A DNA stretch of 64,000 nucleotides from an uncultured Lachnospiraceae bacterium (lineage in GTDB: Bacteria > Bacillota > Clostridia > Oscillospirales > CAG-272), in the NCBI GenBank assembly GCA_964490165.1, contig CAZBAR010000004.1, forward strand, positions 12,917 through 76,916, given 5' to 3'. Below, piece by piece: positions 19,701-53,719 of this stretch (position 1 is the first letter of the stretch; the number at the start of each line of letters is the position of its first letter). The notes under the pieces were generated by a model that did no database searches, was not told the origin of the DNA, and saw nothing but the letters and a program-made list of their open reading frames with translations. A program made the translations under genes and the position numbers.

Positions 19701-19850
19701 TATGACCTGACCTGCCTTTCTGCCGATGATAAATGTCTATATTAAATTATATAACTTTTTTCGCACTTTTTCAAGTATATAGCGTATATTTGGTTGCAAT
19801 ACGAATTATCCTGTGTTAAAATTATAAAAAAAGCACAGGAGACATTGTAT

Positions 19851-21509
19851 ATGCCGAATATTATATTCAAAACTATTGCCGAAACCGAGAAATGCTTTCT
19901 TGATGAGAGGATAGAAACTAAAAAAGAATATACCGAGGGCTCAATGCTTCTCGGCGAACGCTTCAGCTTTCAGCTTTGCTGGCAGTTTGCCGAGGAGGAC
20001 AAAAACGAGCAGAGAACTATAGGATATCTGAAGGTGGAAAGCCCTGTTTCGGACTGGGTAAGCGTGCAGCGTGTAGATCACGTGCCTGTCAGAATGACGA
20101 CAAATCCCGGTGTTACCGACGAGAATTATCTTCGCAAGGAGCCGGGAATTTATCCCGACCTGCTTCGCCCTATGAACGAAAAAACAAGAATTACCGCAAA
20201 CAGCGCGCTGTATTCCGCATGGGTGGATATCCGTGTGCCTGAGGACGCTGAGGGCGGCAGATATCCTATAACCTTCACCTTTGTCGATCTTGAGGGAAAT
20301 ACTGTCGCAGAGTGTACTTTTACTGCCGAGGTAATTCCGGCGCTGCTGCCTGATCAGGAGATAGCAGTAACACAGTGGTTCCACGCCGACTGCCTTGCGG
20401 CATACTACGGTGTTGAGATGTTCTCCGAGGAGCACTGGGCGATCATTTCGCGGTTTATCGACACCGCTGTTGACAACGGCATCAATATGATACTCACTCC
20501 CGTTCTCACTCCCGCACTGGATACCTACATCGGCGGCGAGCGCCCTACAACTCAGCTTGTAGATATATCCTGCAAGGGCGGCAAGTGGTCCTTTGGTTAC
20601 GATAAGCTGGAAAGATGGGTAAATATGTGTCTTGACCTCGGCGTTGAGTATTTTGAGATCGCTCATCTGTTCACGCAGTGGGGGGCGCATCATGCTCCTA
20701 AGGTCATGGTGGACACAGACTACGGATATATTCGTATGTTCGGATGGGATACGGACGCCTGCGGCGAGGAGTATCGCGCGTTTCTGGCAGCTTTTCTGCC
20801 GTCCTTGCTTGAAAAGCTTGAGGAGCTTGGAGTTAAGGACGTTTGCCGCTTCCACATCTCCGACGAACCGGGCGGAGATAAGCTGGAGAGCTATCTTGCG
20901 GCAAAAAGCGTTGTCGCCGATCTTCTTGACGGCTGCATCATAATGGACGCTCTTTCCGATTACAGCTTCTACGAGCAGGGCGTTGTGGAGAAGCCCGTTG
21001 TATCTATCGATCATATGCAGCCCTATCTTGACGCAGGTGTTGAAGATCTTTGGACATACTACTGCTGCTGTCAGGACACAGGTGTTTCAAACCGTTTTCT
21101 GTCTATGCCCACTTCGCGCAACAGAATAATCGGTCAGCAGTTCTATAAATATAATATCGAGGGATTTTTGCATTGGGGCTATAACTTCTACTTTGCCCAC
21201 GAGTCTACCGAGTTCTGCGACCCGTATATCTGCACTGACGGCGGCTTCTGGGTTCCCGCTGGAGACGCGTTCTCCGTATACCCCGCACCCGGCGGCAGCG
21301 CATACGAAACGATCCACCTGCTTGGCTTTACTGCGGCGCTGTACGACCTCAGAGCCTTTAAGCTTTGCGAGGAGCTGTGCGGCAGAGACGCGGTTATGGA
21401 GGTAATCGAGGAAGCCGGCGAAGTAGGATTTAAGGAATATCCCACAGGTGACGAGCAGGTGCTCGCGGTGCGTGAGAGAATAAACAGACTTATTGCAGAA
21501 AATGCGTGA
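19851..21509 (+). CDS. DUF4091 (GH123-like) domain protein, cytoplasmic form
   Basis: The ORF runs from 19794. The preferred start is ATG at 19851 (MPNIIFKTIAETEKCFLDE), preceded by AGGAGA. The C-terminal region IEGFLHWGYNFYF..GDAFSVYP is typical of DUF4091. Confidence 0.75.
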   Translation: MPNIIFKTIAETEKCFLDERIETKKEYTEGSMLLGERFSFQLCWQFAEEDKNEQRTIGYLKVESPVSDWVSVQRVDHVPVRMTTNPGVTDENYLRKEPGIYPDLLRPMNEKTRITANSALYSAWVDIRVPEDAEGGRYPITFTFVDLEGNTVAECTFTAEVIPALLPDQEIAVTQWFHADCLAAYYGVEMFSEEHWAIISRFIDTAVDNGINMILTPVLTPALDTYIGGERPTTQLVDISCKGGKWSFGYDKLERWVNMCLDLGVEYFEIAHLFTQWGAHHAPKVMVDTDYGYIRMFGWDTDACGEEYRAFLAAFLPSLLEKLEELGVKDVCRFHISDEPGGDKLESYLAAKSVVADLLDGCIIMDALSDYSFYEQGVVEKPVVSIDHMQPYLDAGVEDLWTYYCCCQDTGVSNRFLSMPTSRNRIIGQQFYKYNIEGFLHWGYNFYFAHESTEFCDPYICTDGGFWVPAGDAFSVYPAPGGSAYETIHLLGFTAALYDLRAFKLCEELCGRDAVMEVIEEAGEVGFKEYPTGDEQVLAVRERINRLIAENA

Positions 21510-26926: not shown

Positions 26927-27364
26927 TTATTTCTTCTCTACAGCGTTCTTCAAAATAAGAATGCCTTCTTTATATCCTTCAAATCCCTTGCCGCAGATCT
27001 TTGCAATGCAGGCAGGGGTAACGAAAGAGTGACGGCGGAACTCTTCACGGCTGTTTACGTCGGAAAGATGCACCTCAACAGCGGGAAGTCCCACTGCCTT
27101 CAGTGCGTCCAGTATCGCCACACTTGTGTGGGTGTATGCCGCGGGATTTATAAGGATCGCGTCAAACTGACCGTATGCAGCCTGTATTTCGTCTACTATG
27201 TCGCCCTCGTGATTTGACTGAAACAGGCGGCACTGTATGCTCTCGCTCTCGCATATATCCGTGACGTAGGCGCAAAGAGATTTGTAGTCCTTCTTGCCGT
27301 ATATATCAGGCTCTCTCAGTCCCAAAAGGTTCAGATTGGGGCCGTTTATTATAAGAAGCTTCAT
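26927..27364 (-). CDS. aroQ: type II 3-dehydroquinate dehydratase
   Basis: MKLLIINGPNLNLLGLREPDIYG..HLSDVNSREEFR. Confidence 0.92.
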   Translation of the reverse strand: MKLLIINGPNLNLLGLREPDIYGKKDYKSLCAYVTDICESESIQCRLFQSNHEGDIVDEIQAAYGQFDAILINPAAYTHTSVAILDALKAVGLPAVEVHLSDVNSREEFRRHSFVTPACIAKICGKGFEGYKEGILILKNAVEKK

Positions 27365-27406
27365 TTACATTTAATACCTTTCATTTCATTTATTACTATT
27401 ATATTA

Positions 27407-28645
27407 CTATTTATTATTCTGACGTCGTATACCCAATAAGCGTATAAGGTCGTTCGCCGTGGCGCCTATTCCGCGATTCACCATTTTTATGTCCGACCAT
27501 TCGTTGTAAAGGGGAACTCTGACCTTTGCCATTTCCTCAAGATCGCTGCTTTGGGAAAGCGGTCGGTTCTTCGTTGCAAGCTTGCTTGTGGGGCGGAACA
27601 GATATACCACCGTTGAGTTTTGACGCAGGTGCGGCTTGTTGCGCTCTCTCGTAACGATTCCGCCTCCTGTGGATATAATGCATCCGCTTTTCTTTCCCGC
27701 TTCGGCAGCGCATTCGGTCTCAATACTGCGAAATACTTCCTCGCCGTCCTCGGCGAAGAGCTCAGGTATGGTCTTGCCTGCTTTCTTTTCGATCTCTGCG
27801 TCAAGGTCTATAAACGGACGCTGCAAAAACCTTGAAAGCTGTCTGCCTATAACTGTTTTTCCGCAGCCGGGCATACCGATAAGCACAATGTTTTTAGTGC
27901 TTGATGAAACAGCTTTTTCAATTTTTTCGGCAATAGCCATATCGTATTTGTTATCGGTAAACATTTCAGCGGACGCTACTGCCTGATACACCAGCATATG
28001 CAGACCGCCTATAGCCTTAATACCCGCCGCCTCGGCGTCCAGTACAAGACGGGTCTTGGAAGGATTGAAAATAATATCTATGACCCCTGAAAGACTGTCA
28101 AATATACTTATGTCGAGGGGAGAGGTGCCGTTGTCGGGATACATTCCCACGGGGGTGGTGTTTACTATTACGTCGGCATTTTTGTGTGTTTCGATATTGT
28201 TATAATTGTTCTCTCCGCCGCGCGATATAACTACTACCTCGCGTGCTCCCATATCGTCAAGAACCGCGCACACGGTGGCGGCAGCGCCTCCGCTGCCCAG
28301 CACCAGCACTTTTGCGCCTTTTATTCTGATCCTGCTTTTTTTGCAGAGGCTGTAAAATCCGAAATAGTCGGCGTTGTCGCCGTAAAGTGTACCGTCTGCG
28401 CGTCTGCGCACAACGTTTACACTGCCTATGGCTTTTGCGCGCTCTGACAGCTCGTCAAGATAGGGGATAACAGCCTTTTTGTAGGGTATCGTTACGTTTA
28501 TTGCCTGAAAATCGCCGTTTTTTATAAAGTCGGCAAGGTTATCGGGCGCGACCTCAAAAAGGCGGTAGTCGTATCCGCCGATCATTGAGTGTATCATTGG
28601 AGAATAGCTGTGGGAGAGGTGCTCCCCCAAAAGTCCGCAGGTCAT
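27407..28645 (-). CDS. aroE/aroK: bifunctional shikimate dehydrogenase / shikimate kinase
   Basis: The N-terminal half is AroE-like (GLLGEHLSHSYSPMIHS..NVTIPYK..GSGGAA). The C-terminal half carries a P-loop (IVLIGMPGCGKTVIGRQLS) and is shikimate kinase-like. Confidence 0.88.
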   Translation of the reverse strand: MTCGLLGEHLSHSYSPMIHSMIGGYDYRLFEVAPDNLADFIKNGDFQAINVTIPYKKAVIPYLDELSERAKAIGSVNVVRRRADGTLYGDNADYFGFYSLCKKSRIRIKGAKVLVLGSGGAAATVCAVLDDMGAREVVVISRGGENNYNNIETHKNADVIVNTTPVGMYPDNGTSPLDISIFDSLSGVIDIIFNPSKTRLVLDAEAAGIKAIGGLHMLVYQAVASAEMFTDNKYDMAIAEKIEKAVSSSTKNIVLIGMPGCGKTVIGRQLSRFLQRPFIDLDAEIEKKAGKTIPELFAEDGEEVFRSIETECAAEAGKKSGCIISTGGGIVTRERNKPHLRQNSTVVYLFRPTSKLATKNRPLSQSSDLEEMAKVRVPLYNEWSDIKMVNRGIGATANDLIRLLGIRRQNNK

Positions 28646-28660
28646 GGTGTGTCCTTTCCT

Positions 28661-29806
28661 TCAGACGGTCTCAGTATAAGAGCCGAGATATCTGAATTCC
28701 TCGCAGGTATTGTCAAGTCCGCAAATGAGCTGTCTGAAGCTGTCAGAATACACAGATGCGTCAAGGTCAAAATAAAACATAAATTCAAAATCCCTGTCAG
28801 GTATGGGGCGGCTTTCAAGCTTTGTAAGGTTTATGCCCAGAGCCTTAAAACGGGACATAACGCTGAACAGTGCGCCGGGGCGGTGAGGAGTGACCAGCAT
28901 AATGCTTGAACGGTCGGCGCCGGGGTATATTTCGGGGTGCTTTGAAATGCATATAAACCGTGTGTGGTTGTTTCCGTTGTCCTGAACGGAGGAGCTCAGC
29001 ACATCAAGTCCGTAAAGGTCGGCGCAGCGGCGGCTTGACAGCGCAGCTATGTCGCTGCGCGGGCTTTGGGCAACGGTCTTTGCAGCCTCAGCCGTGTTGC
29101 GGCATACTGTTACCTCCACGCCGAGGTTCTTCAAAAACTCGCCTGACTGCTCGATAGCCTGCTTGTGTGAGATGACCTCTTTTACATCAGATAGGGATGT
29201 TCCTCTTTTTGCAAGCAGCTGGTGATCGATGTGTATTCTTGTGCTCTTTACAATGTAGAATTTGTATTTCAGCATAAGGTCATATATTGCCTTCACGCTT
29301 CCGGCATTGGAATTTTCAATGGGCAAAACGCCGTAGTCGCATTTGCCGCCCTCTATTGCCTTAAAAACGTCTTCAAAGGTGGCGTAGTAGTTGATAGCGG
29401 GGTACAGAAAAAGCTTTTCCGCCGCTATTTGAGAGTATGCTCCCTCCACGCCCTGACACGCTACCTTGCCGCTTTTGGGAAATTGCTTCGGCGTTTGCGT
29501 CATTGCCTTGTCGATAAGCTCTAAGGTCGCAGAGGTCTTGTATATGCGGTTTTCCTGCTCGGCGCGGCTTACGTCGAAGAGGGTATTGTACAGGGCAAAT
29601 ACATATTCCTGCATATCGGCGGGAGCCTTTGAAGCCACATCGCACAGCTTTTCCCGTTCTCTGTTTGCGTCGTAAACGGGCATAGAATTTCTTATTTTAT
29701 AATCGGCTACGCCGCGCGCCGCTTCCATGCGGCGGCAGAACAGCTTAACCATTTCTTCGTCAATTGCGTCAATTTCCCGACGCAGTTCTTTCAGATCCTT
29801 TTCCAC
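28661..29806 (-). CDS. pheA: bifunctional chorismate mutase / prephenate dehydratase
   Basis: Chorismate mutase (CM) helix LRREIDAIDEEMVKLFCRRM. Prephenate dehydratase (PDT) domain ACQGVEGAYSQIAA..TRFICI. C-terminal ACT domain (SIMLVTPHRPGALFSVMSRF). Confidence 0.88.
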   Translation of the reverse strand: MEKDLKELRREIDAIDEEMVKLFCRRMEAARGVADYKIRNSMPVYDANREREKLCDVASKAPADMQEYVFALYNTLFDVSRAEQENRIYKTSATLELIDKAMTQTPKQFPKSGKVACQGVEGAYSQIAAEKLFLYPAINYYATFEDVFKAIEGGKCDYGVLPIENSNAGSVKAIYDLMLKYKFYIVKSTRIHIDHQLLAKRGTSLSDVKEVISHKQAIEQSGEFLKNLGVEVTVCRNTAEAAKTVAQSPRSDIAALSSRRCADLYGLDVLSSSVQDNGNNHTRFICISKHPEIYPGADRSSIMLVTPHRPGALFSVMSRFKALGINLTKLESRPIPDRDFEFMFYFDLDASVYSDSFRQLICGLDNTCEEFRYLGSYTETV

Positions 29807-29836
29807 AGAAAATACCGTACCTTTTTATTTTTTGAA

Positions 29837-30910
29837 TTAAAGCATCATATCAAGCAGTGCCACAGCTGCCGCAGCCTCGATAACGGGCACGGCGCGGTGA
29901 ACTATGCAGGGATCGTGCCTGCCGCCTATAACAAGGCGCTTCGGCTTCATTTCCGACAGCGAAACGCTGTCCTGCTCAACAGATATAGACGGGGTGGGCT
30001 TCATGGCAACTCTGAAAACAAGGGGCATAGTGCTTGTAATTCCGCCAAGCACTCCGCCGTGATCGTTTTTCATGGTTGCAACCTTGCCGTCTTTTATACA
30101 GAAGGGGTCATTATGCTCGCTTCCGCGCATAGCTGCAGCGCGAAATCCTGCGCCGAATTCTATTCCGCGCACAGCGGGCACGGCAAACACAGCCTCTGCG
30201 ATCCTGCCCTCAACGCCGTCAAACAGAGGACCGCCGATACCGCCTGGAAGCCCGGTAGCCACGCACTCAATAACTCCGCCTACAGAATCGCCGTCGCGGC
30301 GCGCATCAAGTATTCTTTCCTGCATTGCTTCGCCTGCGGCGTCATCTATTACGGGAAAGACTTTTTTTGAAGTGTCCCTGAGCTCTTCCGCCGTTACGTT
30401 TACGGGGTCAAAAGGCTTATCACTGACATCGGCTACGGATGCGATGTGCGCGCCTATGGTAATGCCTTTTTCGCCGAGTATTTGCAGCGCAATTGCTCCG
30501 ATTGCGCACAGGGGAGCGGTCATTCTGCCCGAGAATGGGCCGCCGCCTGCCATATCAACATCCTCACCCCATTTGAGACGCGCGGTATAGTCAGCGTGAG
30601 AGGGGCGGGGGCAGTCGGCAAACTGCGAATAATCGCGGCTGCGCTGATTTGTATTTTTTATCTGCATTTCAATAGTAGTGCCGTCGGTAACTCCGTCAGT
30701 CACACCGCGAACAAATTCTACCTTGTCAGGCTCTTTTCTCTGTGTAGAGAGCAGGCTCTGACCGGGTGCGCGGCGCTGCATAAATTCCTCAAGTGCGGCG
30801 GTGTCTATCTTTAGTCCGGCGGGTATTCCGTCTGCAATAACTCCTATAGCGGGAGCGTGAGACGCGCCGTAAATGCTGATCTTCAGTTTATCTCCGTAGG
30901 TTCTTGACAT
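29837..30910 (-). CDS. aroC: chorismate synthase
   Basis: MSRTYGDKLKISIYGASHAPAIG..GRHDPC. The start is set at ATG 30910, preceded by GGAG. The ORF-track start is a TTG. Confidence 0.92.
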   Translation of the reverse strand: MSRTYGDKLKISIYGASHAPAIGVIADGIPAGLKIDTAALEEFMQRRAPGQSLLSTQRKEPDKVEFVRGVTDGVTDGTTIEMQIKNTNQRSRDYSQFADCPRPSHADYTARLKWGEDVDMAGGGPFSGRMTAPLCAIGAIALQILGEKGITIGAHIASVADVSDKPFDPVNVTAEELRDTSKKVFPVIDDAAGEAMQERILDARRDGDSVGGVIECVATGLPGGIGGPLFDGVEGRIAEAVFAVPAVRGIEFGAGFRAAAMRGSEHNDPFCIKDGKVATMKNDHGGVLGGITSTMPLVFRVAMKPTPSISVEQDSVSLSEMKPKRLVIGGRHDPCIVHRAVPVIEAAAAVALLDMML

Positions 30911-30925
30911 ATCAATCTCCAAAAT

Positions 30926-32128
30926 TTATTCAAAAATTACCGAGCCGCCGAGACGCTTGAAATCCTCCCAGAACGAGGGATAGGATTTTGCGGCGGCCTC
31001 TGCGCCGTCAATAGTAACGCTGCCTGCTGCAACAGATGCGATAGCGGCAGACATTGCGATACGGTGATCACCCCAAGACGATACTCGTGCAGGGTGCAGG
31101 GTCGTGCCTTTTACAGAAAGACCGTCCTCGCGCTCTTTTATATTCGCGCCCATTGCGCCAAGCACCTGACAAATAGTCTTCAGCCTGTCGCTTTCTTTGA
31201 AGCGCAGCCGCCCGGCGTTATAAATAACAGTCTGACCTTGCCGCACACTTGCCGCAACGGCAAGAACAGGCACAAGGTCAGGTATGTCAGCCGCGTCCAG
31301 CAGGACCTTGCCCTCACCGGACAGCCTTTCAAGGCATTCGCACACTGCGCGGTCTCCTTGAAGCGAGTCACGAAGCAGTCCCGTAACTGTAACGGGAGCA
31401 CCGAGAGCGGCGGCGCACAGCCAGAATGCCGCGCCCGACCAGTCTCCCTCAACGGTCGCTTTTACGGGGGATATATAGCGCTGGGATCCGGGGATCTCAT
31501 AGCCGTCCTTTGTTTCCTTTACGGTAATGCCGAAATCGCGAAGCGCCCAAAGGGTCATACCGATATATGATTCAGACTCGCGAGAGCCTGTAAGATGTAT
31601 TTTGCTGTCGCCCTCGCAAAGGGGAAGGGCGAACAAAAGACCTGATATATATTGAGAAGAAACATCGGCGCGAAGAGTGTATTCCCCGCTGCCGAGCTTG
31701 CCGTTCACAAGCATTATTTCTTCGTCCTCGACAATACTCACGCCGTGAGAGCAAAGCTCATCTGTCAAAACGTTCATAGGACGAACACTGAGTCTGCCGC
31801 GGCGAATAAGCTTAGCTTTTGTGCCGAGGGCGGCAGCAACAGGCAAAAGAAAACGCAGCGTAGAGCCTGATTCGGCGCAGTCGAGGGTTGCCGTTTGCGG
31901 GGCAGTACCGCCGTTTACATAAAATTTGCCGTCAGTGTATGATATTTCGGCGCCCAGTGCTTTAAGGCATTTTACGGTTGCGGAGATGTCATCGGACAGG
32001 GTCTCGCAGCATATTTCGCAAGGCTCATCAGACAGCGCTGCGCATATAAGCAGCCGGTGCGCCATTGATTTTGAGGCTATTGCGGGAATAGTTCCGTGAA
32101 GGCCTTTTCCGTTTACGGTAACTGTCAT
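30926..32128 (-). CDS. aroA: 3-phosphoshikimate 1-carboxyvinyltransferase (EPSP synthase)
   Basis: MTVTVNGKGLHGTIPAIASKSMAHRLL.. with GGAG 8 nt upstream of ATG at 32128. The longer ORF-track N-terminus is judged spurious. Confidence 0.9.
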   Translation of the reverse strand: MTVTVNGKGLHGTIPAIASKSMAHRLLICAALSDEPCEICCETLSDDISATVKCLKALGAEISYTDGKFYVNGGTAPQTATLDCAESGSTLRFLLPVAAALGTKAKLIRRGRLSVRPMNVLTDELCSHGVSIVEDEEIMLVNGKLGSGEYTLRADVSSQYISGLLFALPLCEGDSKIHLTGSRESESYIGMTLWALRDFGITVKETKDGYEIPGSQRYISPVKATVEGDWSGAAFWLCAAALGAPVTVTGLLRDSLQGDRAVCECLERLSGEGKVLLDAADIPDLVPVLAVAASVRQGQTVIYNAGRLRFKESDRLKTICQVLGAMGANIKEREDGLSVKGTTLHPARVSSWGDHRIAMSAAIASVAAGSVTIDGAEAAAKSYPSFWEDFKRLGGSVIFE

Positions 32129-32163
32129 AATGATCTCCATTCCGCCGTCCTGCGGCGGTATAA

Positions 32164-32465
32164 GTCGAAAAGTCGAAAAAAACAGCAAGCAGGATTGAGT
32201 TTTTGCCGTTTTTTATTGTTCTGCTGCTTATATTTATCTTTTTCGACAGCCTGAATTATTATAATTGAGTTTGTCGAAAAACCTAACGGTTTTTTCGACA
32301 GAAAGTTCCGTGCGCTCGCGCCGTCGCGCCTCGAAGCTACGCTTCTCGACACTCGCAGAACTGCAAGGTGTGGGCTGGCGGCGGTGTATGTCCGCCTTGC
32401 CCACGGATTTTTATTTGTAATTGTTTACGCATTCATTTTTGTAATACTCATTACTTTTCCGACAG
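32164..32465. repeat. cluster of GTCGAAAAA / TTTTTCGACAG inverted-repeat motifs (family-A end-like) between aroB and aroA
   Basis: Motif copies occur at 32164, 32172, 32239 (inverted), 32272 and 32290 (inverted). Degenerate copies occur at 32342 and 32455. The pair 32272/32290 forms an 11-bp hairpin. Confidence 0.6.
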
Positions 32466-32486
32466 TCATAAACGAATTATCGGGAC

Positions 32487-33551
32487 TTATTCACTGAGTC
32501 CTGCGGCGAAAAATTCCTCAAGACTTGACGCATCTACGGGATATAAAACGGAGTGTCCCACTCTTTCGGGCAGGATAAGGGTGATCTTTTTCCCGTTTTT
32601 CTTTTTGTCGCCCATAGCAGCTGCGGCAAGCTCTGCTGCACTGTATTCGCAGCTCTCGCCGATGCCGTTCTTTTTCAAAAGCTCTGACACCTTTTCGGGA
32701 ACTGAAGCATCGCAAACTCCCAGCTGTGCCGCAGCCTTTGAGACTATAACCATACCGATAGCCACGGCAGCGCCGTGAGATATCTTATAGCTGCTGAGCT
32801 TTTCAATAGAGTGGGCGGCAGTGTGTCCGAGATTCAGCAGCGCGCGGCAGCCTGTGTCGCGCTCATCCTCATTTACTATGTCGCGCTTTATTTCAACGCA
32901 GGCGGTAATAATGTCCTCAAGCTGCTCGCGAATATTTCCGAGAAGCATATCTGGGCTCAGCTTGTCGCTTAAAAATGCGTATTTTATAACCTCGCCCATA
33001 CCGTCTGCAAAGATATCATCGGGCAGGGTATCTGTCATATCAGGGTCGCAGAAAACTGCTTCGGGCTGCCAGAAGCTGCCGCAAAGATTTTTGCCGCCGT
33101 CAAGGTCAACAGCGGTCTTTCCGCCGACTGAGGAGTCCACTGCGGCAAGAAGTGTGGTAGGCACCTGAACAAAGCGTATGCCGCGCATATATGTGGATGC
33201 CGCAAAGCCTGCAAGATCGCCTACAACGCCTCCTCCGAAAGCAACGATCGCGTCGCCGCGGTCAAAGGCATTCTCGCACAGAAAGTTCTGAAGGGACGCC
33301 CATGTGGCGATGCACTTGCTTTCCTCTCCTGCAGGAAATACGAATTTCACATAGTCATAGCCGAAAAGCACATTGCCGAGGCGCTCGCCGTAAAGTCTGT
33401 CAACGTTTGTATCGGTAACGACGCACAGACGCGCTGTGCCGATAACAGAGCGAATACGCTCGCCGAGAGTATCAAACACTCCCCGTCCTATTATAACGTT
33501 GTATGTTTTTGATTCAGCTTCAACTTTAACTGTTTTCATAGTTATGACCAT
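32487..33551 (-). CDS. aroB: 3-dehydroquinate synthase
   Basis: ..VVTDTNVDRLYG..GGGVVGDLAGFAASTYMRGIRFVQVPTTLLAAVDSSVGGKT. The start is ambiguous: ATG at 33551 or 33539. The ORF-track start at 33614 is unlikely. Confidence 0.9.
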   Translation of the reverse strand: MVITMKTVKVEAESKTYNVIIGRGVFDTLGERIRSVIGTARLCVVTDTNVDRLYGERLGNVLFGYDYVKFVFPAGEESKCIATWASLQNFLCENAFDRGDAIVAFGGGVVGDLAGFAASTYMRGIRFVQVPTTLLAAVDSSVGGKTAVDLDGGKNLCGSFWQPEAVFCDPDMTDTLPDDIFADGMGEVIKYAFLSDKLSPDMLLGNIREQLEDIITACVEIKRDIVNEDERDTGCRALLNLGHTAAHSIEKLSSYKISHGAAVAIGMVIVSKAAAQLGVCDASVPEKVSELLKKNGIGESCEYSAAELAAAAMGDKKKNGKKITLILPERVGHSVLYPVDASSLEEFFAAGLSE

Positions 33552-33618
33552 TGCTTCCTTTGAATTTGTTTTCAGACTTTGATCTTTTGATAAAAGCTCT
33601 GTAAAGCTCGGCAAACTT

Positions 33619-33646
33619 AAAAAATCACGCAGCGCTGCGTGATTTT
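33619..33646 (-). terminator. strong intrinsic terminator inside the aro operon leader (candidate attenuator)
   Basis: Minus strand reads AAAATCACGCAGC/GCTGCGTGATTTT, a perfect palindrome, followed by TTTTTT. It sits ~70 nt upstream of aroB. Confidence 0.6.
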
Positions 33647-33683
33647 GACATTATATCAAATTCAATTGCAGCACAAAAAGCTT

Positions 33684-33731
33684 TTACGCGGCGTAAAAGT
33701 AAAAAATGCTGTTGCAAAAGTAATTTTTCAT
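33684..33731 (-). CDS. candidate leader peptide MKNYFCNSIFYFYAA (15 codons, 3 Phe + 3 Tyr)
   Basis: GGAG-7 nt-ATG. The ORF is ATG AAA AAT TAC TTT TGC AAC AGC ATT TTT TAC TTT TAC GCC GCG TAA. Its 3' end lies inside hairpin 33681..33699. Confidence 0.45.
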   Translation of the reverse strand: MKNYFCNSIFYFYAA

Positions 33732-33760
33732 AGTTATGCTCCACTTTTTTTGCTACATAT

Positions 33761-33789
33761 ATTATAAAGCTATGAGCTATTTATGTCAA
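33761..33789 (-). promoter_or_regulatory. consensus sigma-70 promoter of the aro operon
   Basis: Minus strand reads TTGACA-17 nt-TATAAT, an exact consensus. Confidence 0.65.
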
Positions 33790-33892
33790 TACTTTTTCAT
33801 ATTATTTTGACGCCGCAGTCAAAGTATTCTGCATAAAAAAGCTGTCATTGGTAAAAAATATCGTTGAAACCTAAAGAAAGGAATACGAATTT

Positions 33893-34660
33893 ATGAACAA
33901 CAGTCAAAATGAATACGGCAGAGATCCTAAGGGAGGTGCGCGCAGTCTTTACGTAATGCTGCTTGTAATTCTTATGAGCGTTGCTGTAGTAGTTGCAGTG
34001 GCAGGATCTGTAGCAAAAAATGTAAAAAAGCCAACAACAAATACAACTGCCGTAACTACGTCCAAAAGAGACACAGACAGCAAAAGGGCAGATGATGCCT
34101 TGAATCTGAAGGAGGGCAGCGAGACTGACGGTGAGACCATGCCCGACACCGGTAAGGAAACAGAGCCTACTGCCGACGATGTAAACGACACAGAGCCGGC
34201 AGTCGCAGAAGCCGACGTGTTGCCTACATTTTCCGCACCCTGCGGCGGTGAGATAATGCGATGCTATACGGGCACTACTCCTGTTTTTTCAGTTACTATG
34301 GATGACTGGCGTACACATACCGGCATAGACGTTTATGCCGCTGCCGGAACAGAGGTGAGATCAGTAGCTGACGGTGTTATAAAAGACGTGTGGGACGACG
34401 CAATGATGGGAAGCTGCATATCTATAGAGCATTCAGGCGGTGCAGTAAGCGTGTATAAAAACCTGTCGGACGAAATTCCCGAGTGGATAGAAAAGGGCGT
34501 AAGCGTCAAGGCAGGAGATACTATTGCTTTGGCCGGAGAGAGCGCGCTGGAGGAGATCGCAGAGGAGAACCATTTGCATTTTGAATTGCAGGTAAACGGC
34601 GTGTCGGTGGATCCGCAGGCGTATATAGTCTTCTCAGACGAAACAAGCTATGATGAATAG
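33893..34660 (+). CDS. M23/LytM-family metallopeptidase, membrane-anchored
   Basis: N-terminal TM helix (LYVMLLVILMSVAVVVAVAG). HTGIDVYAAAGTEV..HLHFEL M23 motifs. Confidence 0.8.
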   Translation: MNNSQNEYGRDPKGGARSLYVMLLVILMSVAVVVAVAGSVAKNVKKPTTNTTAVTTSKRDTDSKRADDALNLKEGSETDGETMPDTGKETEPTADDVNDTEPAVAEADVLPTFSAPCGGEIMRCYTGTTPVFSVTMDDWRTHTGIDVYAAAGTEVRSVADGVIKDVWDDAMMGSCISIEHSGGAVSVYKNLSDEIPEWIEKGVSVKAGDTIALAGESALEEIAEENHLHFELQVNGVSVDPQAYIVFSDETSYDE

Positions 34661-34703: not shown

Positions 34704-36686
34704 TCAATTATTCAGCGGATATCGGGCGGGCATCAGTATATGATACAGCAGGTAAACTGCGTCTCTGTCATCAACGGCGTCATCATTGTTGAAGTCGTAA
34801 GCCTCGTCGGGAACGTCAGTTTCTTCAAGGTAGTTCATAAGGGCTGTTACATCCTTCGTGTCTACATATCCGTTGCCGTCAATATCTCCGGGTATCGCAG
34901 GTACATAGTCTGGGTCGGGCTCTCCGCATATGCTGCAAACGCCGTTTACGAAATCATGCTCGCATACAGTCTCGCTCAAAAGCTCTTCAAGCGCGTTGCC
35001 GAGCGCTGTTCTTGTTTCGTAATAATCCTTGTCGGAGGTAGAGTAGCTGACCATTCCTGTGGTCATGACCTTGATATACTTGTCTGCTGCTCCTTCTCCC
35101 TCTGCTTCTTCAAGCATATGGAACATCTGATAGTCCTCAATGCCGTCGCGCATAGCCTCAAGACGCAGGCTTCCTACGGGAACATCCAAACCGTATTTTG
35201 CACCGGGATATATCAGTATCGATTCTCCGTGGGCGTTGGGGTAGGCAGAGTTGGTAATGTTGTTTGCATAAGGATCGCGGCAGTCACCCAAATAGAAGTT
35301 TGCAAAGTTGTATAAAAATCCCTCAACTCCGTGGTCATACTGCTGCCAGAAAAGAATTCTCTGCGCTACGCCGTCAGTCTGCATATAGTAGTTGATATAT
35401 GGCGCTTCGCTGTCCCAGGAGATAAACCACCAGACCTTGTCGCCGCGCTCCTTCATCTCCTCCATACGCTCCTCAAAGGTGCCGTATTTGCTGTCCCATT
35501 TGGTAGGCTGCAAAAGCTTTGCACCGGAAACCGACAGCTCAGACTTGTCAGTATACGCAAAGGTCTTTACGCACCAGTGATTGATAAAGTCCTTGTAAAA
35601 CTCTATCTGGTCAATAACGGTGCCGTCCTCAAGGGTGTAGTCAATGTCGTTTATATAGGTCGTTATAAGACTGAAGGCATGATCCGAATAGTCGGGCTTG
35701 AGCTTATCCAGTGTTGAAGACATAATGTTGTAGTAGTCCTTCAGCGCATCAAGCTGAGCGGGGGTATCCGCATCAACTATGTTTGAAAAATGATAAGCCT
35801 TGTCAAAGCGATGTGCATTTTCCTCTCCGTTGTAATACTTGTATACAGCCTTCATATATGAATAGTCGGTTGCGTGAGAGGGAGGGCCGGCAAATTCGGT
35901 GTCACCCTGAAATGCTGTAACTCTCGGATTGTCCATATACAATGTAGCTGCTCTGGTAGTAAGCGATACGGGAAGGTAGTATGCGCAAACTCTGTTTTCC
36001 AAAAGGTAATCATAGTATGATTTGTACAGAACGTCAGTTTCTACGCCGCCGTTGCCGTATGCGTTGTTTGAAAGGTATTGGAAGCTCAGATTCATGCTGG
36101 TGGCGCAGGCGGTCTCGTCAGATAGTGCAAAATCCCACACGTGGGCGGATACTGCGGCGCATTTTACTGCTTTGCCGTCGGAGTCGCGCACTGTGAGCAT
36201 AGCTTTGTAGTCGCCTGCAACAGTGTCCGCGGTGGAGGTGAGCTTTATCAAAAACGCCTGACTTTTTCCTGCTGCAAGATCAAATGCCCCGTATGCAGAG
36301 AGGGGCGGGATGGCGTCGGGAACATTGCCGAAGGAGCCGCAGTCGTGGTACAGCTCAATAAATATCTCGGCTTCAAGCACGTTGCCGTCTGAGTCCTTGA
36401 ACTCGCCAAGCTCCGCGCTCATACCGCTTTTATTGCTGTCAGAGGAAAGGACGAACTGAATATCCTCGATCTCGTTTTTTGCCATGTACGCGGTAAAGCT
36501 CTCCATGCCGGTGTCCGACGTGTCACTGTCGGAAATTTTTTCACTGGCGTAGTCGAACCACAGATGAATGCTGCTGTCCTCATATTCTGCGTCAATATGA
36601 GCGGCGTCGGCAGTGCCTGTGCCGGAAATGCATATGGCGCAAAAGACCGTGCAGATCACAAGCGCAGCAGAAATAAATTTTCTCAT
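34704..36686 (-). CDS. secreted DUF4091 (GH123-like) protein with C-terminal dockerin
   Basis: 660 aa with a signal peptide. DUF4091-type region (GFLYNFANFY..GESILIYPG..LEAMRDGIEDYQ). C-terminal dockerin loops DIDGNGYVDTKD and DFNNDDAVDDRD. Confidence 0.8.
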   Translation of the reverse strand: MRKFISAALVICTVFCAICISGTGTADAAHIDAEYEDSSIHLWFDYASEKISDSDTSDTGMESFTAYMAKNEIEDIQFVLSSDSNKSGMSAELGEFKDSDGNVLEAEIFIELYHDCGSFGNVPDAIPPLSAYGAFDLAAGKSQAFLIKLTSTADTVAGDYKAMLTVRDSDGKAVKCAAVSAHVWDFALSDETACATSMNLSFQYLSNNAYGNGGVETDVLYKSYYDYLLENRVCAYYLPVSLTTRAATLYMDNPRVTAFQGDTEFAGPPSHATDYSYMKAVYKYYNGEENAHRFDKAYHFSNIVDADTPAQLDALKDYYNIMSSTLDKLKPDYSDHAFSLITTYINDIDYTLEDGTVIDQIEFYKDFINHWCVKTFAYTDKSELSVSGAKLLQPTKWDSKYGTFEERMEEMKERGDKVWWFISWDSEAPYINYYMQTDGVAQRILFWQQYDHGVEGFLYNFANFYLGDCRDPYANNITNSAYPNAHGESILIYPGAKYGLDVPVGSLRLEAMRDGIEDYQMFHMLEEAEGEGAADKYIKVMTTGMVSYSTSDKDYYETRTALGNALEELLSETVCEHDFVNGVCSICGEPDPDYVPAIPGDIDGNGYVDTKDVTALMNYLEETDVPDEAYDFNNDDAVDDRDAVYLLYHILMPARYPLNN

Positions 36687-36929: not shown

Positions 36930-38078
36930 TTATTCAAAAATTACCTTTATATATCTGTTTTTGCCGCGGCTGACGATTATTTCGCTCTGATCGATTGTCA
37001 CGGAGGGATCATCAACTGTTTTTCCGTCAAGCTTAATACCGCGTCCTGCGATCAGACGGCGCGCTTCGCTTTTAGAGGCTGCAAAGCCGACTGTGCACAG
37101 CAGTTCTACAAGATCGCTGTTTTCTTTAGGCAGTGTCACTGCTTCGACCGTTTTCGGAATAATTCCTCCTGCCACGCTTCTGTACCTGTTTTCCGCAGGT
37201 GCGACCGCATCATTGCCGTGGTACATACGGACTATTTCGCGGGCGTATACAAAATGTGCGTCACGGATGTCTTCCGGCACATTCTGCAATTCTGTGGTAA
37301 GACGGATATAATCCGGCAAAACAGAATCCGGCACACGCATACATTTCTCAAACATAACTTCTGCCGGTTCGTCCAGCCCGACATAATTATCGAGTGATTT
37401 GCTCATCTTTTCTGTACCGTCCAACCCGACTAAGATCGGAAAGGTAATTACGACCTGAGACTCCTGTCCGTAGTCCTTCTGAAGATCTCTTCCGACTAAT
37501 AGGTTGAATGTCTGATCAGTTCCGCCTACCTCTATATCCGCATTCAGCGCAACGCTGTCGTATCCTTGCATTAACGGGTACAACAGCTCGTGCAGACCGA
37601 TTGCACGACCGGAAGCAAAGCGACCTGCAAAATCGTCGCGTTCCATGATCCGTGCAAGTGTGTACTTTCCTGCAAGCGAAAGAACATCGTCAAAATTCAT
37701 CTTTGAAAGCCACTCGGAATTATATACGATCCGTGTTTTGTCCTTATCCAAAATCTTTGTCACCTGCTCAAAATAAGTTTTTCCGTTTATACGCGTTTGT
37801 TCAAATGTCAGCGGCGGACGCGTTTTACTTTTGCCGGAGGGGTCTCCTATCATGCCCGTAAAATCTCCTATTACAAACACTACTTCGTGTCCCAGATCCT
37901 GAAACATACGAAGCTTGCGCAAAACAACAGAGTGTCCCAGATGAAGGTCAGGTCGACTCGGATCGGCACCGAGTTTGATAATAAGGCGCTTGCCGCTGTT
38001 CAGCTTTTCCCTCAGTGCATCTTCCGAGTAGATCGACACTGCGTCCCGCCTGAGGATCTGAAAAAAGTCGTTGATCAT
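36930..38078 (-). CDS. tyrS: tyrosine--tRNA ligase
   Basis: HLGH (HIGH) and KMSKS motifs, GDFTGMIGDPSGKS, and a C-terminal S4-like domain. Confidence 0.92.
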   Translation of the reverse strand: MINDFFQILRRDAVSIYSEDALREKLNSGKRLIIKLGADPSRPDLHLGHSVVLRKLRMFQDLGHEVVFVIGDFTGMIGDPSGKSKTRPPLTFEQTRINGKTYFEQVTKILDKDKTRIVYNSEWLSKMNFDDVLSLAGKYTLARIMERDDFAGRFASGRAIGLHELLYPLMQGYDSVALNADIEVGGTDQTFNLLVGRDLQKDYGQESQVVITFPILVGLDGTEKMSKSLDNYVGLDEPAEVMFEKCMRVPDSVLPDYIRLTTELQNVPEDIRDAHFVYAREIVRMYHGNDAVAPAENRYRSVAGGIIPKTVEAVTLPKENSDLVELLCTVGFAASKSEARRLIAGRGIKLDGKTVDDPSVTIDQSEIIVSRGKNRYIKVIFE

Positions 38079-38120
38079 GTTAGTTCTCTCCTTTTGAAAT
38101 AAAAAATATAAAAATAAAAA

Positions 38121-38148
38121 GGGACCAAAGCCAAAAAGCTTTGGTCCC
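38121..38148 (-). terminator. intrinsic terminator-like hairpin 40 nt upstream of the tyrS start
   Basis: An 11-bp stem, GGGACCAAAGC-tttttg-GCTTTGGTCCC (minus-strand reading), followed by TTTTTATTTTTAT. It is either the recombinase terminator or a tyrS leader attenuator. Confidence 0.6.
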
Positions 38149-38165
38149 TCTGCCTGAAAAAATAA

Positions 38166-39845
38166 TTAAGGCAAACGCAACCAAAGCCTGTTTCCGTAAT
38201 AATAGGAAGCAGACTTAATGCAGTATGCGTATGCCTTAAAGTTAGTCATATTTATAACCATATCTTTCTTTGAAAGTTGTTTTTTGTTTTTCAGCTTTAG
38301 AAAAGCGAAATCGATCGCTACGTTCGCCGCAGGCGAATTTAGTTGAAAAAGTCCAATGCTTTGCATTGGACTTTTCCCTGGCAGAGCGGAAGTGGTCAAA
38401 TCCGAACCCAAATCCGACTTTTCGATTTCGCTCAGACTGACAGTTTCCGAACCTTCTTTGTAGTTGAATGTAATCACCATTTTGTCATCATACAAATAAA
38501 TGGCATTTACAAAACTATCTATCAGTCTGCGTTTATGATCCAAACGGCGAGTATTAAGTTTGCGGAAACGGTGAAACCAAAAGATGATTTGTTCTTTTGT
38601 GAGCAACGGTTTTGCCATTTCTTCTTTTACGATTTGAATGGACAAGTCATTTTTCTGTTTTTCTAAATCTTCAAGGCGCTGTTTGGTAGACGGAGTAATA
38701 ATCCCCTGCTGAATAGCATTAAGTAGATTATTAATTCCTTTTTGTGTTTCTGCGTATTGTTTATGCAATAACGGAAGTACGGTATTTTCAGTACCTTGGA
38801 TTTCCAATACGGCATCAGCAATTTTTTCGATTATGTCATCATCAAATAATACCTTTTCTATCTGCCGTAGAACAAGATTTTCTATCCAATCCTTTTTAAC
38901 TGTTTTCTTATCGCAACCGCTGTGTTTTTTAACACCTGCACACTTATAATAACGATATATATTTGAAGTTTTGCTTGTACCGCTTTCCCCGACCATAAAG
39001 CGATTACATTTTCCACAATAAAGTTTTGCAGTCAATAAATACTCGTCTTCGGCTTTATGTTTAGCTGGAGCTTTTTTGTTTGCTGCCATACGCTCCTGTA
39101 CTCGATCAAAAAGTTCTTGCGGAACAATAACCGGAATACCGTCTGGTTGTACAATATCACGATACTTAAACTCACCAATATAACGGCGATTATGAAGCAT
39201 TCTTGTTACGCTGTCAATACTGATTTTTCCTCCAAAAGCTGAACGCAAGCCCTTTATATTCATTTCATCGGCAATTTCCTTCATAGATGCGCCTTCGGCG
39301 TAAGCCTTAAATGCTTGTAAAACGGCAGGGGCGGTTAACGGATCAATTTGAAAATGTTGTTCGCTGTCAATAGTGTATCCCAAAGGAAGTGTGCCACCGT
39401 TAAATTTGCATTTATAGGCATTTTCCGTAAGCCCACGGATAACCTTTTCGGAAAGCTCAGCAGAATAATATTCCGCCATACCTTCGAGTACTGCTTCCAT
39501 AAGAATTCCTTCCGAACCCTCAGAAATTTTTTCGGTAGCTGATACAACTTTAACACCGTTTTTGCGAAGCACAGCTTTATAGTGGGCGGAATCATAACGG
39601 TCACGGGCGAAGCGGTCAAGTTTCCATACAATGATAAGGTCAAACTTTTTGCTTGCACTATCCTTTATCATTTTCTGAAAATCAGGTCGGTTATCTGTTC
39701 TGGCAGAAAAAGCACGGTCAATGTATGTACCAACGATCTGAATATCATTCTTTTCCGCAAACGCTTTGCATTCCCGCAACTGTCCTTCGATTGACTCCTC
39801 TCGCTGATTATCCGAGGAATAGCGTGCATAGATTACTCCGGTCAT
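38166..39845 (-). CDS. large serine recombinase (integrase)
   Basis: Resolvase N-terminal domain MTGVIYARYSSDNQREESIEGQ, then recombinase and zinc-ribbon region (CGKCNRFMVGESG..YYKC) and a coiled coil. The last ~65 aa look non-native and cross a terminator-like hairpin. Confidence 0.88.
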   Translation of the reverse strand: MTGVIYARYSSDNQREESIEGQLRECKAFAEKNDIQIVGTYIDRAFSARTDNRPDFQKMIKDSASKKFDLIIVWKLDRFARDRYDSAHYKAVLRKNGVKVVSATEKISEGSEGILMEAVLEGMAEYYSAELSEKVIRGLTENAYKCKFNGGTLPLGYTIDSEQHFQIDPLTAPAVLQAFKAYAEGASMKEIADEMNIKGLRSAFGGKISIDSVTRMLHNRRYIGEFKYRDIVQPDGIPVIVPQELFDRVQERMAANKKAPAKHKAEDEYLLTAKLYCGKCNRFMVGESGTSKTSNIYRYYKCAGVKKHSGCDKKTVKKDWIENLVLRQIEKVLFDDDIIEKIADAVLEIQGTENTVLPLLHKQYAETQKGINNLLNAIQQGIITPSTKQRLEDLEKQKNDLSIQIVKEEMAKPLLTKEQIIFWFHRFRKLNTRRLDHKRRLIDSFVNAIYLYDDKMVITFNYKEGSETVSLSEIEKSDLGSDLTTSALPGKSPMQSIGLFQLNSPAANVAIDFAFLKLKNKKQLSKKDMVINMTNFKAYAYCIKSASYYYGNRLWLRLP

Positions 39846-45018: not shown

Positions 45019-45094
45019 TGGCAGGGGCACAAAGATTCGAACTCTGGACACGCGGTTTTGGAGACCGCTGCTCTACCAGCTGAGCTATACCCCT
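45019..45094 (-). tRNA. trnW: tRNA-Trp (anticodon CCA), CCA-3' encoded
   Basis: AGGGGTATAGCTCAGCTGGTAGAGCAGCGGTCTCCAAAACCGCGTGTCCAGAGTTCGAATCTTTGTGCCCCTGCCA. The cloverleaf was folded by hand: 7-bp acceptor stem, GCTC/GAGC D stem, GCGGT/ACCGC anticodon stem, TTCGAAT T-loop. Confidence 0.9.
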
Positions 45095-51715: not shown

Positions 51716-52000
51716 AGGCCATACACCCGAAGATCGGGAAAGCGTCGCACACGACGCCGTGTCAACTGCTCAGGGCAGGCGACCCTGCGGCACATCAGCT
51801 AAACTGCTTAATGCTGCTTGGTTCCCCACCTGACATGGTTCACAGCCGCTGATTGCGCTGGAACCCGCCCATCAACACAGTTGAACACGGCACAGACTGT
51901 ACAAAGCAAACCCTCAAAACGGGAATACCACCCCTGCATACAGCGGATTTCAGGTACAGGAGGCCGCTGAACTCCCGGCTGGTATGACCTTACCCTGCGG
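51716..52000 (-). ncRNA. ffs: signal recognition particle RNA, large Bacillus-type with Alu domain (ends approximate)
   Basis: The minus strand contains the domain IV core CATGTCAGGTGGGGAACCAAGCAGCATTAAGCAG and the Alu-domain-like GGGAGTTCAGCGGCCTCCTGTACCTGAAATCCGCTGTATGCAGGGG. The 5' CCGCAGGGTAAGGTCATAC pairs with the 3' GTATGGCCTTTCCCTACGG. It sits upstream of dnaX, as in B. subtilis. Confidence 0.85.
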
Positions 52001-52108: not shown

Positions 52109-52390
52109 AACTTTCTTTTTCGTACCAAAAAGAAAGTTACAAAGAAAAGGGTATCCAAGAGGGAGGTATCCCTCTTGGAAAACTCCCTCTGACTTCCCTG
52201 CGGGAAGTATACGTTAGTATCAATCAAACGATATTGGGGCCATTGACCACTAACGCTCTGCTGTAAATCTCGTTATGCTTCCTCCGGAAGCTATAAGGAA
52301 AGTGGGATTTTCAAGGGAGAAAACGCAGTTGTCTCCCTTGAATGATTTTCTTTCGAGCTTTCTTTTTTCACAAAAAGAAAGCGACAAAAA
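52109..52390 (+). repeat. intergenic multi-hairpin repeat family B, copy 1 (longest)
   Basis: Bounded by hairpins CTTTCTTTTT-cgtacc-AAAAAGAAAG and CTTTCTTTTTT-cac-AAAAAGAAAG. Alignable with 57889..58096 and, inverted, with 55436..55560. Confidence 0.7.
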
Positions 52391-53494: not shown

Positions 53495-53719
53495 CAGTCT
53501 GTCGAAAAACTAAATGGCAGTAGCAAAATAACTAAAAGTTTTGGTCAAGCTTTTTCAAAAGCTTGCGGATTTTTAAGGCAGAGCCTTAAATCGCGCTCCG
53601 CAGAGCGCGAAATTCCTATGACTTCACGGAGTCCAGAGGGTTACCTCTGGTCGCGGCTCGCAAGCCGCGAAATCCCTTTTGTGAAGTTTGCTATTTCTGC
53701 GGACTTTTTCGACAACCTC
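53495..53719 (+). repeat. intergenic multi-hairpin repeat family A, full copy 1
   Basis: Ends CTGTCGAAAAA (53499) and TTTTTCGACAA (53705). Five internal hairpins at 53546-65, 53573-89, 53592-609, 53633-50 and 53653-68. Alignable over its full length with the inverted copy at 62987..63211. Confidence 0.75.

Follow-up and report, generated by a model that had tools for sequence, protein, structure and literature searches.

A probable ribosome-mediated Phe/Tyr attenuator upstream of an aro/pheA operon and its leader family in Oscillospirales

T-box riboswitches, a mechanism first discovered on tyrS, are the usual solution in Firmicutes for the control of this gene and of aromatic amino-acid genes. 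They sense the charging of transfer RNA (tRNA), and on this depends the choice of a terminator or an antiterminator in the 5' leader of the transcript. A short leader upstream of an aro/pheA operon, located on a 64-kb stretch of DNA from an uncultured bacterium of the order Oscillospirales (GenBank assembly GCA_964490165.1, contig CAZBAR010000004.1; the whole stretch is called the window), probably makes a similar choice in controlling the operon, as a transcription attenuator of the ribosome-mediated (leader-peptide) type with charged tRNA-Phe and tRNA-Tyr as its signals. Unlike a T-box, the window leader is about 135 nucleotides (nt) long, which is too short for such an element, has neither a specifier loop nor the T-box sequence, and would use a translated open reading frame (ORF) as its sensor. 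In agreement with this, the T-box family (RF00230) has no match in the 64-kb window, in the aro or tyrS leader at E ≤ 10, or in 20 related loci.

The pheL–pheA leader of Escherichia coli, like that of pheM–pheST, is a promoter-proximal 15-codon leader with codons for the end product and with 1:2, 2:3 and 3:4 hairpins, and in pheL–pheA an intrinsic terminator precedes the chorismate mutase–prephenate dehydratase operon (PMC3082878). These features are shared by the window leader. However, the two show no homology in sequence or structure, as the Rfam Phe_leader family (gammaproteobacterial pheL) gives no match at the gathering threshold or at E ≤ 10 on 33450..33950. The pheL peptide contains Phe codons only, whereas the window leader contains both Phe and Tyr codons. 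Unlike pheL, leaders of the window type stand before the whole common pathway plus pheA, and in relatives before aroF and tyrA as well, and the hosts are Gammaproteobacteria for pheL and Firmicutes (Oscillospirales) for the window leader. The leu-phe_leader family of Lactococcus (RF01743) does not match the aro leader, and no Rfam family does so at the gathering threshold or, on 33450..33950, at E ≤ 10. The 20 related loci likewise contain no Rfam family above its threshold.

In Corynebacterium glutamicum, the aroR leader with a Phe-Tyr-Phe motif precedes aroF and is de-attenuated on Phe limitation, which has been validated experimentally according to the account in PMC11802643 (citing Neshat 2014). 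As described there, aroR shares with the window leader a mixed Phe/Tyr leader peptide, an operon for the DAHP synthase and ribosome stalling, and by this description aroR–aroF would be an especially close functional match. As far as that account goes, aroR differs in its actinobacterial host, in a three-codon aromatic motif as against 6–10 aromatic codons in the Oscillospirales family, and in that only Phe limitation is effective. The computationally predicted uORFC-13-1 before aroF of Acholeplasma has a promoter, a ribosome-binding site, a U-run coding for Phe and a terminator directly after it, but is reported only from Acholeplasma and environmental sequences (24 representatives) and is described with at least one Phe codon and no Tyr runs (Brewer et al. 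2021, PMC8632094). By this description, the Oscillospirales family is set apart by its Tyr-Phe runs and covarying antiterminator. His leader peptides with terminator and antiterminator replace T-boxes in some Firmicutes, including Clostridia (Peptostreptococcaceae and Lutispora), according to comparative predictions (Naville & Gautheret 2010; Ashniev et al. 2022; PMC2965389, PMC9413887), but these concern His, other operons and other lineages, and no aromatic-codon leaders have been reported among them. For bmrCD of Bacillus subtilis, experiments have demonstrated that transcription is attenuated through the ribosome (PMC4191407). A literature search, with subscription-only work lying outside it, found no aromatic-codon leader family described in Clostridia or Oscillospirales. 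Comparative-genomics papers on attenuation are also said to have come from Lyubetsky and co-workers. The mechanism is a textbook one, and the leader family itself is previously undescribed.

The promoter of the window leader, TTGACA-17-TATAAT at 33789..33761 of the minus strand, matches the consensus at 12 of 12 positions and is the sole promoter-like site within 33300..34100. A Shine-Dalgarno sequence is followed by a leader ORF encoding MKNYFCNSIFYFYAA, with the codons ATG AAA AAT TAC TTT TGC AAC AGC ATT TTT TAC TTT TAC GCC GCG TAA, of which 6 of 15 specify Phe or Tyr; its stop codon is at 33686..33684. The promoter, the ribosome-binding site, the ORF and its tandem TTT TAC TTT TAC run had all been read from the sequence in the initial annotation and are found as described there. 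The same annotation had also recognised the two hairpins that follow, although the stems differ from those proposed. Hairpin 1, with its CTTTTT tail, is present but is made of 8 base pairs (bp) and a 3-nt loop instead of a 9+1+9 palindrome, and the second palindrome with its T6 tract is the terminator but has an 11-bp stem and a GCGC loop instead of 13+13 bases. The U-run of the terminator reaches 33619, and aroB begins at 33551 (354 amino acids) or at 33539, the latter in agreement with relatives, so that the terminator lies about 68–80 nt upstream of aroB depending on the start chosen, close to the estimate of about 70 nt made earlier. The element sits between divergent genes, a gene for an M23 peptidase (33893..34660, plus strand) and aroB (minus strand). 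Because these flanking genes diverge, the leader terminator cannot end an upstream gene.

RNA folding in silico shows that the leader can form mutually exclusive helices. The minimum free energy (MFE) of the leader corresponds to z = −2.9 relative to shuffled sequences, and the MFE structure of the complete leader contains a 17-bp antiterminator that buries the entire 5' arm of the terminator. This antiterminator spans 33674..33632 and is made of the helices GUGCUGC/GCAGCGC, UGA/UCA and UUUGAUA/UGUCAAA. Its first helix, formed with GCAGCGC at 33638..33632, is the competing pairing that had been noticed by hand, with GUGCUGC placed one base away from its actual position. Folding of the alternative structures had been proposed as a check together with this pairing, and besides the antiterminator it reveals a 1:2 anti-antiterminator: in the RNA from the AUG to region 2, CAGCAU pairs with GUGCUG to form a base stem, which is followed by a symmetric 6×6 U-rich internal loop with hairpin 1 on top. 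Region 1 includes the four tandem codons UUU UAC UUU UAC. The predicted layout is the classical 1:2 / 2:3 / 3:4 arrangement, with hairpin 1 capping the 1:2 anti-antiterminator and too weak to be regarded, in any general sense, as a second terminator. The calculated energies are −6.4 kcal/mol for hairpin 1 by itself, −14.7 kcal/mol for the 1:2 structure (base stem plus hairpin 1), −13.4 kcal/mol for the terminator and −18.5 kcal/mol for the antiterminator. Since the termination state (1:2 plus terminator) amounts to −28.1 kcal/mol and the read-through state (hairpin 1 plus antiterminator) to −24.9 kcal/mol, the leader terminates by default. Masking of region 1 makes the antiterminator the more stable of the two competing hairpins, ahead of the terminator.

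These structures lead to a model in which the leader most likely switches on the genes for aromatic amino-acid synthesis upon shortage of Phe or Tyr. Transcription would start from the consensus promoter, with a ribosome translating the 15 codons of the leader. If both amino acids are in ample supply, this ribosome would proceed to the UAA inside hairpin 1, and with the ribosome at the stop codon or departed, region 1 (CAGCAU..CUUUUACG) would pair with region 2 (CGUAAAAG..GUGCUG). With GUGCUGC occupied, the terminator (3:4) would form and RNA polymerase would halt at 33619, before aroB. When Phe or Tyr is scarce, the ribosome would stall either at UUU UAC UUU UAC or at the UAC UUU that precedes it, and would cover region 1; the freed region 2 and the 5' arm and loop of the terminator would then form the 17-bp antiterminator, allowing the polymerase to continue into aroB–aroA–aroC–pheA–aroEK–aroQ. 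Hairpin 1 may also serve as a pause hairpin. Sensing of both Phe and Tyr fits an operon that feeds both branches of the pathway, and the operons of relatives include tyrA and pheA.

The leader is conserved in close relatives with aroB as the first gene. AroB homologues with 66–83% identity were traced to their contigs, and the leader was found in every such aroB-first relative; the ORF is kept in six aroB-first relatives. The leader peptide is MKNYFINSIFYFYVA in L001–L003, MSIYFYDSIFNFYFA in L088, MNNYFAYSIFYFYFA in L089, MSKYFSYSIFYFYFA in L004–L007 and MNKFFAYSIFYFYFA in L094. The ORF is intact and of equal length in L088, L089, L004 and L094, and also in L001 when counted from the equivalent ATG, and no frameshift or premature stop is seen in the leader peptides of the aroB-first relatives. 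Codon 4 shows a synonymous TAC/TAT change and a Tyr-to-Phe change, and at the variable codons 6, 7 and 14 the changes tend toward Tyr or Phe. Several terminator loops occur (GCGC, GCAC, AGCACC, AGUGCA and AUGG), all of which are still complementary to the GUG of region 2. The 1:2 base stem is predicted by RNAfold in all of the seven close variants, and hairpin 1 and its U5 tail are kept in all relatives of the window clade. The perfect TTGACA-17-TATAAT promoter is retained in each relative whose contig extends that far, being present in L001, L004, L088 and L089 and also in L095, L096 and L066. One more distant member, L095, is a single locus from a DNA-pattern scan of metagenome contigs; a 1-nt insertion in the loop of hairpin 1 shifts its TAA out of frame, and the ORF (MAKKFFYSSFFCFYRAVKDFCAASNI) reads through region 2 and ends inside the antiterminator.

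AroB relatives with at most 61% identity have the gene order aroF–tyrA–aroB, and homologous leaders stand in front of such operons in about 30 further Oscillospirales species. In L096, a divergent M23 peptidase gene and the leader are followed by aroF–tyrA–aroB–aroA–aroC–pheA–aroEK, and the leader (MMQHKFYIGSYFYFYYEVKAFCAASNI) is clearly homologous to that of the window. Neither aroF nor tyrA is present in the 64-kb window. Sequence comparison thus indicates that the window lineage has lost aroF–tyrA from the 5' end of the operon and yet has kept the leader. Remodelling of the operon around a conserved leader is also seen when L096, L090–L093 and L066 are set against the leader–aroB order of the window clade; in L066, a single locus, the leader precedes a tyrA-first operon.

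Eighty genome loci around aroB were fetched among the matches listed, a set that does not include the closest relatives, and these loci begin about 100–176 nt upstream of aroF. A search with nhmmer using the window leader gave marginal matches only in these loci, and a first scan for aromatic ATG-initiated ORFs within 1 kb upstream of aroB was negative. Both searches were misleading because aroB is the third gene and the leader lies upstream of aroF at the 5' edge of the locus. Short Phe/Tyr-rich ORFs are present just upstream of aroF in roughly 30 of the 80 loci, and the scan for them gave 36 sense-strand matches as against 10 antisense ones. Examples of their peptides are MTTMSSAAQFYFYYYYFFTQKK, MVAAHVSARFFFYYYYFFPGKR, ..VYFYFYFYFSISKSKSDLCCNR and MFAFAYFYYFYFSLGKRFLCCK, and a cultured carrier is Hominicoprocola fusiformis CLA-AA-H269 (leader at L087:1-130). 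A covariance model (R1) was derived from 26 aroF-type leaders, none of them from the window clade. It matches 33716..33665 of the window with 38 bits (E = 8e-7), which is its sole significant match in the 64 kb, and it also recovers all window-clade loci, L095, L096 and L066. This match and the z of the leader's MFE indicate that the arrangement goes beyond chance. The most conserved motif of the family is the GUGCUGC core of region 2 (UUUGUGCUGC). Judged by sequence, the leader family is widespread in one Firmicutes order, Oscillospirales, with about 40 members. The view that such a leader would be an unusual solution for Clostridia has to be modified accordingly: it is not a one-off oddity, since the family stands before aroF-, tyrA- and aroB-first operons in many Oscillospirales, and leader-peptide attenuators of his genes had already been predicted in Firmicutes (PMC2965389, PMC9413887).

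The aromatic codons of the family are specific to the reading frame. Among 728 codons of 38 leaders, Phe and Tyr together account for 38% and Tyr for 17.7% in frame, whereas the other two frames have 15–16% Phe plus Tyr, 0.9–3.9% Tyr, and 30 and 43 stop codons; Trp is essentially absent from the leader ORFs. Each leader has 6–10 Phe/Tyr codons in a peptide of roughly 15–35 amino acids, which is variable outside the aromatic runs, and these runs form the 5' arm of hairpin 1 across the whole family. Most leaders that the edge of the locus does not truncate have GGAG, GGAGG or GAGG ahead of the ATG, at a similar short distance in L004, L045, L049, L051, L061, L062 and L028. In all 38 leaders, the ORF is separated from the first gene by a terminator with a U-run, with energies from −9.5 to −25.8 kcal/mol; 37 were located by an automatic finder and that of L036 was placed by eye.

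The alternative helices covary. Because the spacers differ too much for a whole-leader MAFFT alignment, the antiterminator was analysed in motif-anchored segments of 10+10 nt in fixed register, taken from 19 distinct pairs of region 2 and terminator and anchored on UUUGUGC and GCAC. In this alignment, 91% of the cells are paired and 6 of the 10 pairs are changed on both sides (20 cells), a result reached in 0 of 500 shuffles, whereas sliding the register gives 27–49% paired. The bases of the terminator loop covary with the three bases 5' of UUUGUGC, as in CGA/UUG, CGC/GCG, UAA/UUA, AAA/UUU and AUU/AAU. Hairpin 1 behaves in the same manner in 26 relatives, with 92.9% of the cells paired and double changes in 6 of 12 pairs (0 of 500 shuffles). 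Region 2 pairs with its own terminator with a summed energy of −453 kcal/mol, as against −400 ± 9.3 kcal/mol with the terminators of other leaders (z = −5.8, 0 of 20000 permutations), and relative to shuffled region 2 the mean z of this pairing is −3.2. In most aroF-type leaders, folds of the nascent RNA give the 1:2 structure between the ORF and region 2 before the 5' arm of the terminator exists, and in many leaders region 2 switches to this arm once it is added to the fold. The alignment of orthologues that had been recommended at the outset thus shows that the ORF and its aromatic codons are kept and that the antiterminator and hairpin 1 covary.

Taken together, the leader has a promoter-proximal ORF with a ribosome-binding site, in-frame codons for the end products, a terminator, an exclusive antiterminator and a 1:2 structure whose geometry, ribosome occupancy being a matter of the model, places the regulatory codons in the 5' strand. 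The Phe/Tyr attenuator proposed in the initial annotation is supported in silico by the conserved in-frame ORF with its aromatic codons, by terminators in all relatives examined, by the covarying antiterminator and by the codon-bearing anti-antiterminator. What is observed in silico are the sequence elements, a set of helices that exclude one another and are both conserved and covarying, and aromatic codons specific to the reading frame; from these we infer translation of the ORF, ribosome stalling, coupling of transcription and translation, pausing at hairpin 1, and the regulatory outcome. Several points weigh against this interpretation. The stop codon of the window clade is 9 nt upstream of GUGCUGC, and a terminating ribosome would mask at most 1–2 of its bases; therefore, the block of the antiterminator must rely mainly on the 1:2 structure forming again. 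In most aroF-type leaders, the stop codon is in the 3' arm of hairpin 1 near region 2, or the ORF reads through region 2, so that a ribosome at the stop codon would there cover the strand needed for the antiterminator. In the L001 lineage, the closest among the relatives (L001:2290..2367; also L002 and L003), an insertion of about 68 nt separates the promoter-proximal GGCAG/Shine-Dalgarno sequence from the leader ATG, and translation of the leader is thereby doubtful; the ORF of L001 lacks a recognisable Shine-Dalgarno sequence and has an in-frame upstream ATG (MVII-), and the attenuator of this lineage may be impaired or differently initiated. Moreover, the leaders are related by descent, so that the shuffle statistics overstate independence, and the antiterminator alignment joins two natural segments per leader by an artificial linker. 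RNA polymerase of B. subtilis reportedly outruns ribosomes, as is said to have been found by Johnson and co-workers in 2020, which, if it held here, would disfavour control that depends on coupling.

Three other explanations have been weighed against a ribosome-mediated attenuator. The two terminator hairpins of the initial annotation suggest that hairpin 1 with CUUUUU could be a functional first terminator that is melted by the translating ribosome, giving two successive checkpoints. A consensus scan does mark this hairpin as terminator-like, and both the hairpin and its U5 tail are conserved throughout the window clade. However, hairpin 1 alone contributes only the −6.4 kcal/mol given above, the MFE embeds it within the longer 1:2 structure, and the wider family follows it with (C/U)(G/A)AUUUGUG, without a U-run, the U residues of this AUUUG belonging to the antiterminator. 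The claim of two terminators is therefore not upheld, and a second checkpoint is unlikely. Less likely still is an operation of the same switch by a factor acting in trans, such as an RNA-binding protein of the TRAP or PyrR type, uncharged tRNA or a small ligand, with the ORF incidental to a U-rich structured RNA. Such mechanisms are usual in Firmicutes, the RNA core is conserved beyond coding needs, the symmetric U-rich internal loop of the 1:2 structure could be a binding site, and L001 lacks a good Shine-Dalgarno sequence. The strong frame specificity of the Tyr codons, with the other frames full of stops, points the other way, as do the drift of variable codons toward Phe or Tyr and the persistence of ATG, frame and good Shine-Dalgarno sequences in many lineages while the N-termini of the peptides vary. 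In addition, (G/U)AG repeats of the TRAP type are absent, and a search of the aro leader at E ≤ 10 gave neither a T-box nor another Rfam family.

It is very improbable that the element is a stand-alone small gene or small RNA, with a promoter, a 15-residue hydrophobic peptide and a terminator, unrelated to an aroB gene transcribed from its own promoter. The consensus promoter and the strong terminator would be compatible with such a unit, and an extended −10-like TGATATAAT is present at about 33658..33650 (minus strand). The consensus scan nevertheless shows no promoter-like site between the terminator and aroB, and the element always stands directly before the first gene of the aro operon (aroB, aroF or tyrA) while the upstream neighbours differ. 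The length and sequence of the peptide vary except for the aromatic runs, and a covarying antiterminator is sensible only for the control of read-through. A nascent-peptide sensor of free amino acids of the TnaC type was rejected, as it would induce the biosynthetic operon when its product is abundant.

A second candidate attenuator, with Tyr codons, lies upstream of tyrS in the window. Its ORF segment AGGCUUUGGUU is a copy of the 3' arm of the terminator and could act as the antiterminator strand. The MFE of this leader is −62.9 kcal/mol (z = −7.4), and its score against the Rfam leu-phe_leader family (RF01743) is 19.1 bits, as against a gathering score of 70. In L102, the TyrRS of which is 82% identical, the leader is kept with YYYY, a strong Shine-Dalgarno sequence and a compensatory change from U-A to C-G. 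In L104, a common species with a TyrRS of 68% identity, the tyrS leader is absent. The coordinates of the features of both leaders are given in Table 1.

Table 1. Coordinates of the aro leader, its operon and the candidate tyrS leader in the window
Feature	Position	Strand	Remark
−35 hexamer TTGACA	33784..33789	minus	consensus scan
−10 hexamer TATAAT	33761..33766	minus	consensus scan
Shine-Dalgarno GGAG	33739..33742	minus	7 nt ahead of leader ATG (33731)
Leader ORF MKNYFCNSIFYFYAA + TAA	33684..33731	minus	15 codons, 3 Phe + 3 Tyr
Main putative regulatory codons UUU UAC UUU UAC (codons 10–13)	33693..33704	minus	last eight bases form the 5' arm of hairpin 1
Region 1 base strand CAGCAU (codons 7–9)	33706..33711	minus	partner GUGCUG at 33674..33669
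Hairpin 1, 8 bp, loop CCG	33681..33699	minus	stop codon inside; followed by CUUUUU
Region 2 core GUGCUGC	33668..33674	minus	alternative partners: region 1, or terminator 5' arm and loop
Antiterminator hairpin, 7 + 3 + 7 bp = 17 bp	33632..33674	minus	RNAfold
Intrinsic terminator, 11-bp stem (33646..33636 with 33631..33621), loop GCGC, U6 tail	33619..33646	minus	terminator scan
Operon predicted to be regulated: aroB, gap, aroA, aroC, pheA (CM-PDT-ACT), aroE–aroK fusion, aroQ	26927..33551	minus	Pfam and ORF list
Candidate Tyr-codon attenuator	38108..38261	minus	upstream of tyrS (36930..38078, minus)
tyrS leader ORF MTNFKAYAYCIKSASYYYGNRLWLRLP*	38249..38166	minus	three tandem Tyr codons, YYY at 38204..38196
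tyrS-leader candidate antiterminator strand AGGCUUUGGUU	38189..38179	minus	ORF-embedded copy of terminator 3' arm
tyrS-leader terminator, 15 bp	38151..38118	minus	
tyrS-leader candidate pairing AGGCUUUGG/CCAAAGC			

Within the aro operon, aroB and aroA are separated by an unusually long non-coding gap of about 340 nt (32189..32486) with an internal inverted repeat at about 32239..32281. The gap is 30–40 nt in L001 and L004 and about 346 nt in L091–L093. No further copy of it is found by blastn in the window or the loci, and its small ORFs have no Pfam match; the gap may contain an internal regulatory site or be left over from an insertion. A single ORF of 412 amino acids (27407..28645, minus strand; Shikimate_dh_N + SKI) combines shikimate dehydrogenase with shikimate kinase, and L096 and L100 have the same fusion. 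Elsewhere in the window, four paralogues, each about 2.5 kb long, lie in tandem (611..~10700, minus strand) and share roughly 60–90% DNA identity, and the one checked has a dockerin type I domain and DUF4838. More dockerin/GH123 genes are found at 19755..21509 and 34704..36686. From these dockerin genes, the organism would seem to be a Clostridium of the rumen or gut that bears a cellulosome. Direct and inverted repeats dispersed in the window, 57–146 nt long and with 83–89% identity (53495..53714 with 62992..63210; 52117..52300 with 57896..58079; 10774..10830 with 53660..53716), of which an inverted pair flanks about 9.3 kb, may be ends of mobile elements or elements resembling repetitive extragenic palindromes. 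The only Rfam matches at gathering level in the window are the bacterial large signal recognition particle RNA (158.8 bits) and one tRNA, at 51719..51987 and 45022..45094 (minus strand).

Oscillospirales is a major order of gut and rumen Firmicutes, and the leader family indicates a probable mode of regulation of the shikimate, Phe and Tyr pathways in these abundant and poorly studied Clostridia. Few leader-peptide attenuators for amino acids are listed for Firmicutes, and to these it adds a family supported by covariation; it also offers a model by which a small ORF that recurs without annotation can be annotated. The candidate tyrS leader suggests that the same logic reaches a tRNA synthetase gene. 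Given the aro leader family and the tyrS leader of the window lineage, there is about an even chance that in Oscillospirales leader-peptide attenuation has taken the place of T-box control throughout the aromatic amino-acid genes. If the leaders are functional, transcription and translation would have to be coupled at them, in contrast to the 'runaway transcription' of B. subtilis, and the family would be a natural test case for transcription–translation coupling in Firmicutes beyond antibiotic-sensing leaders.

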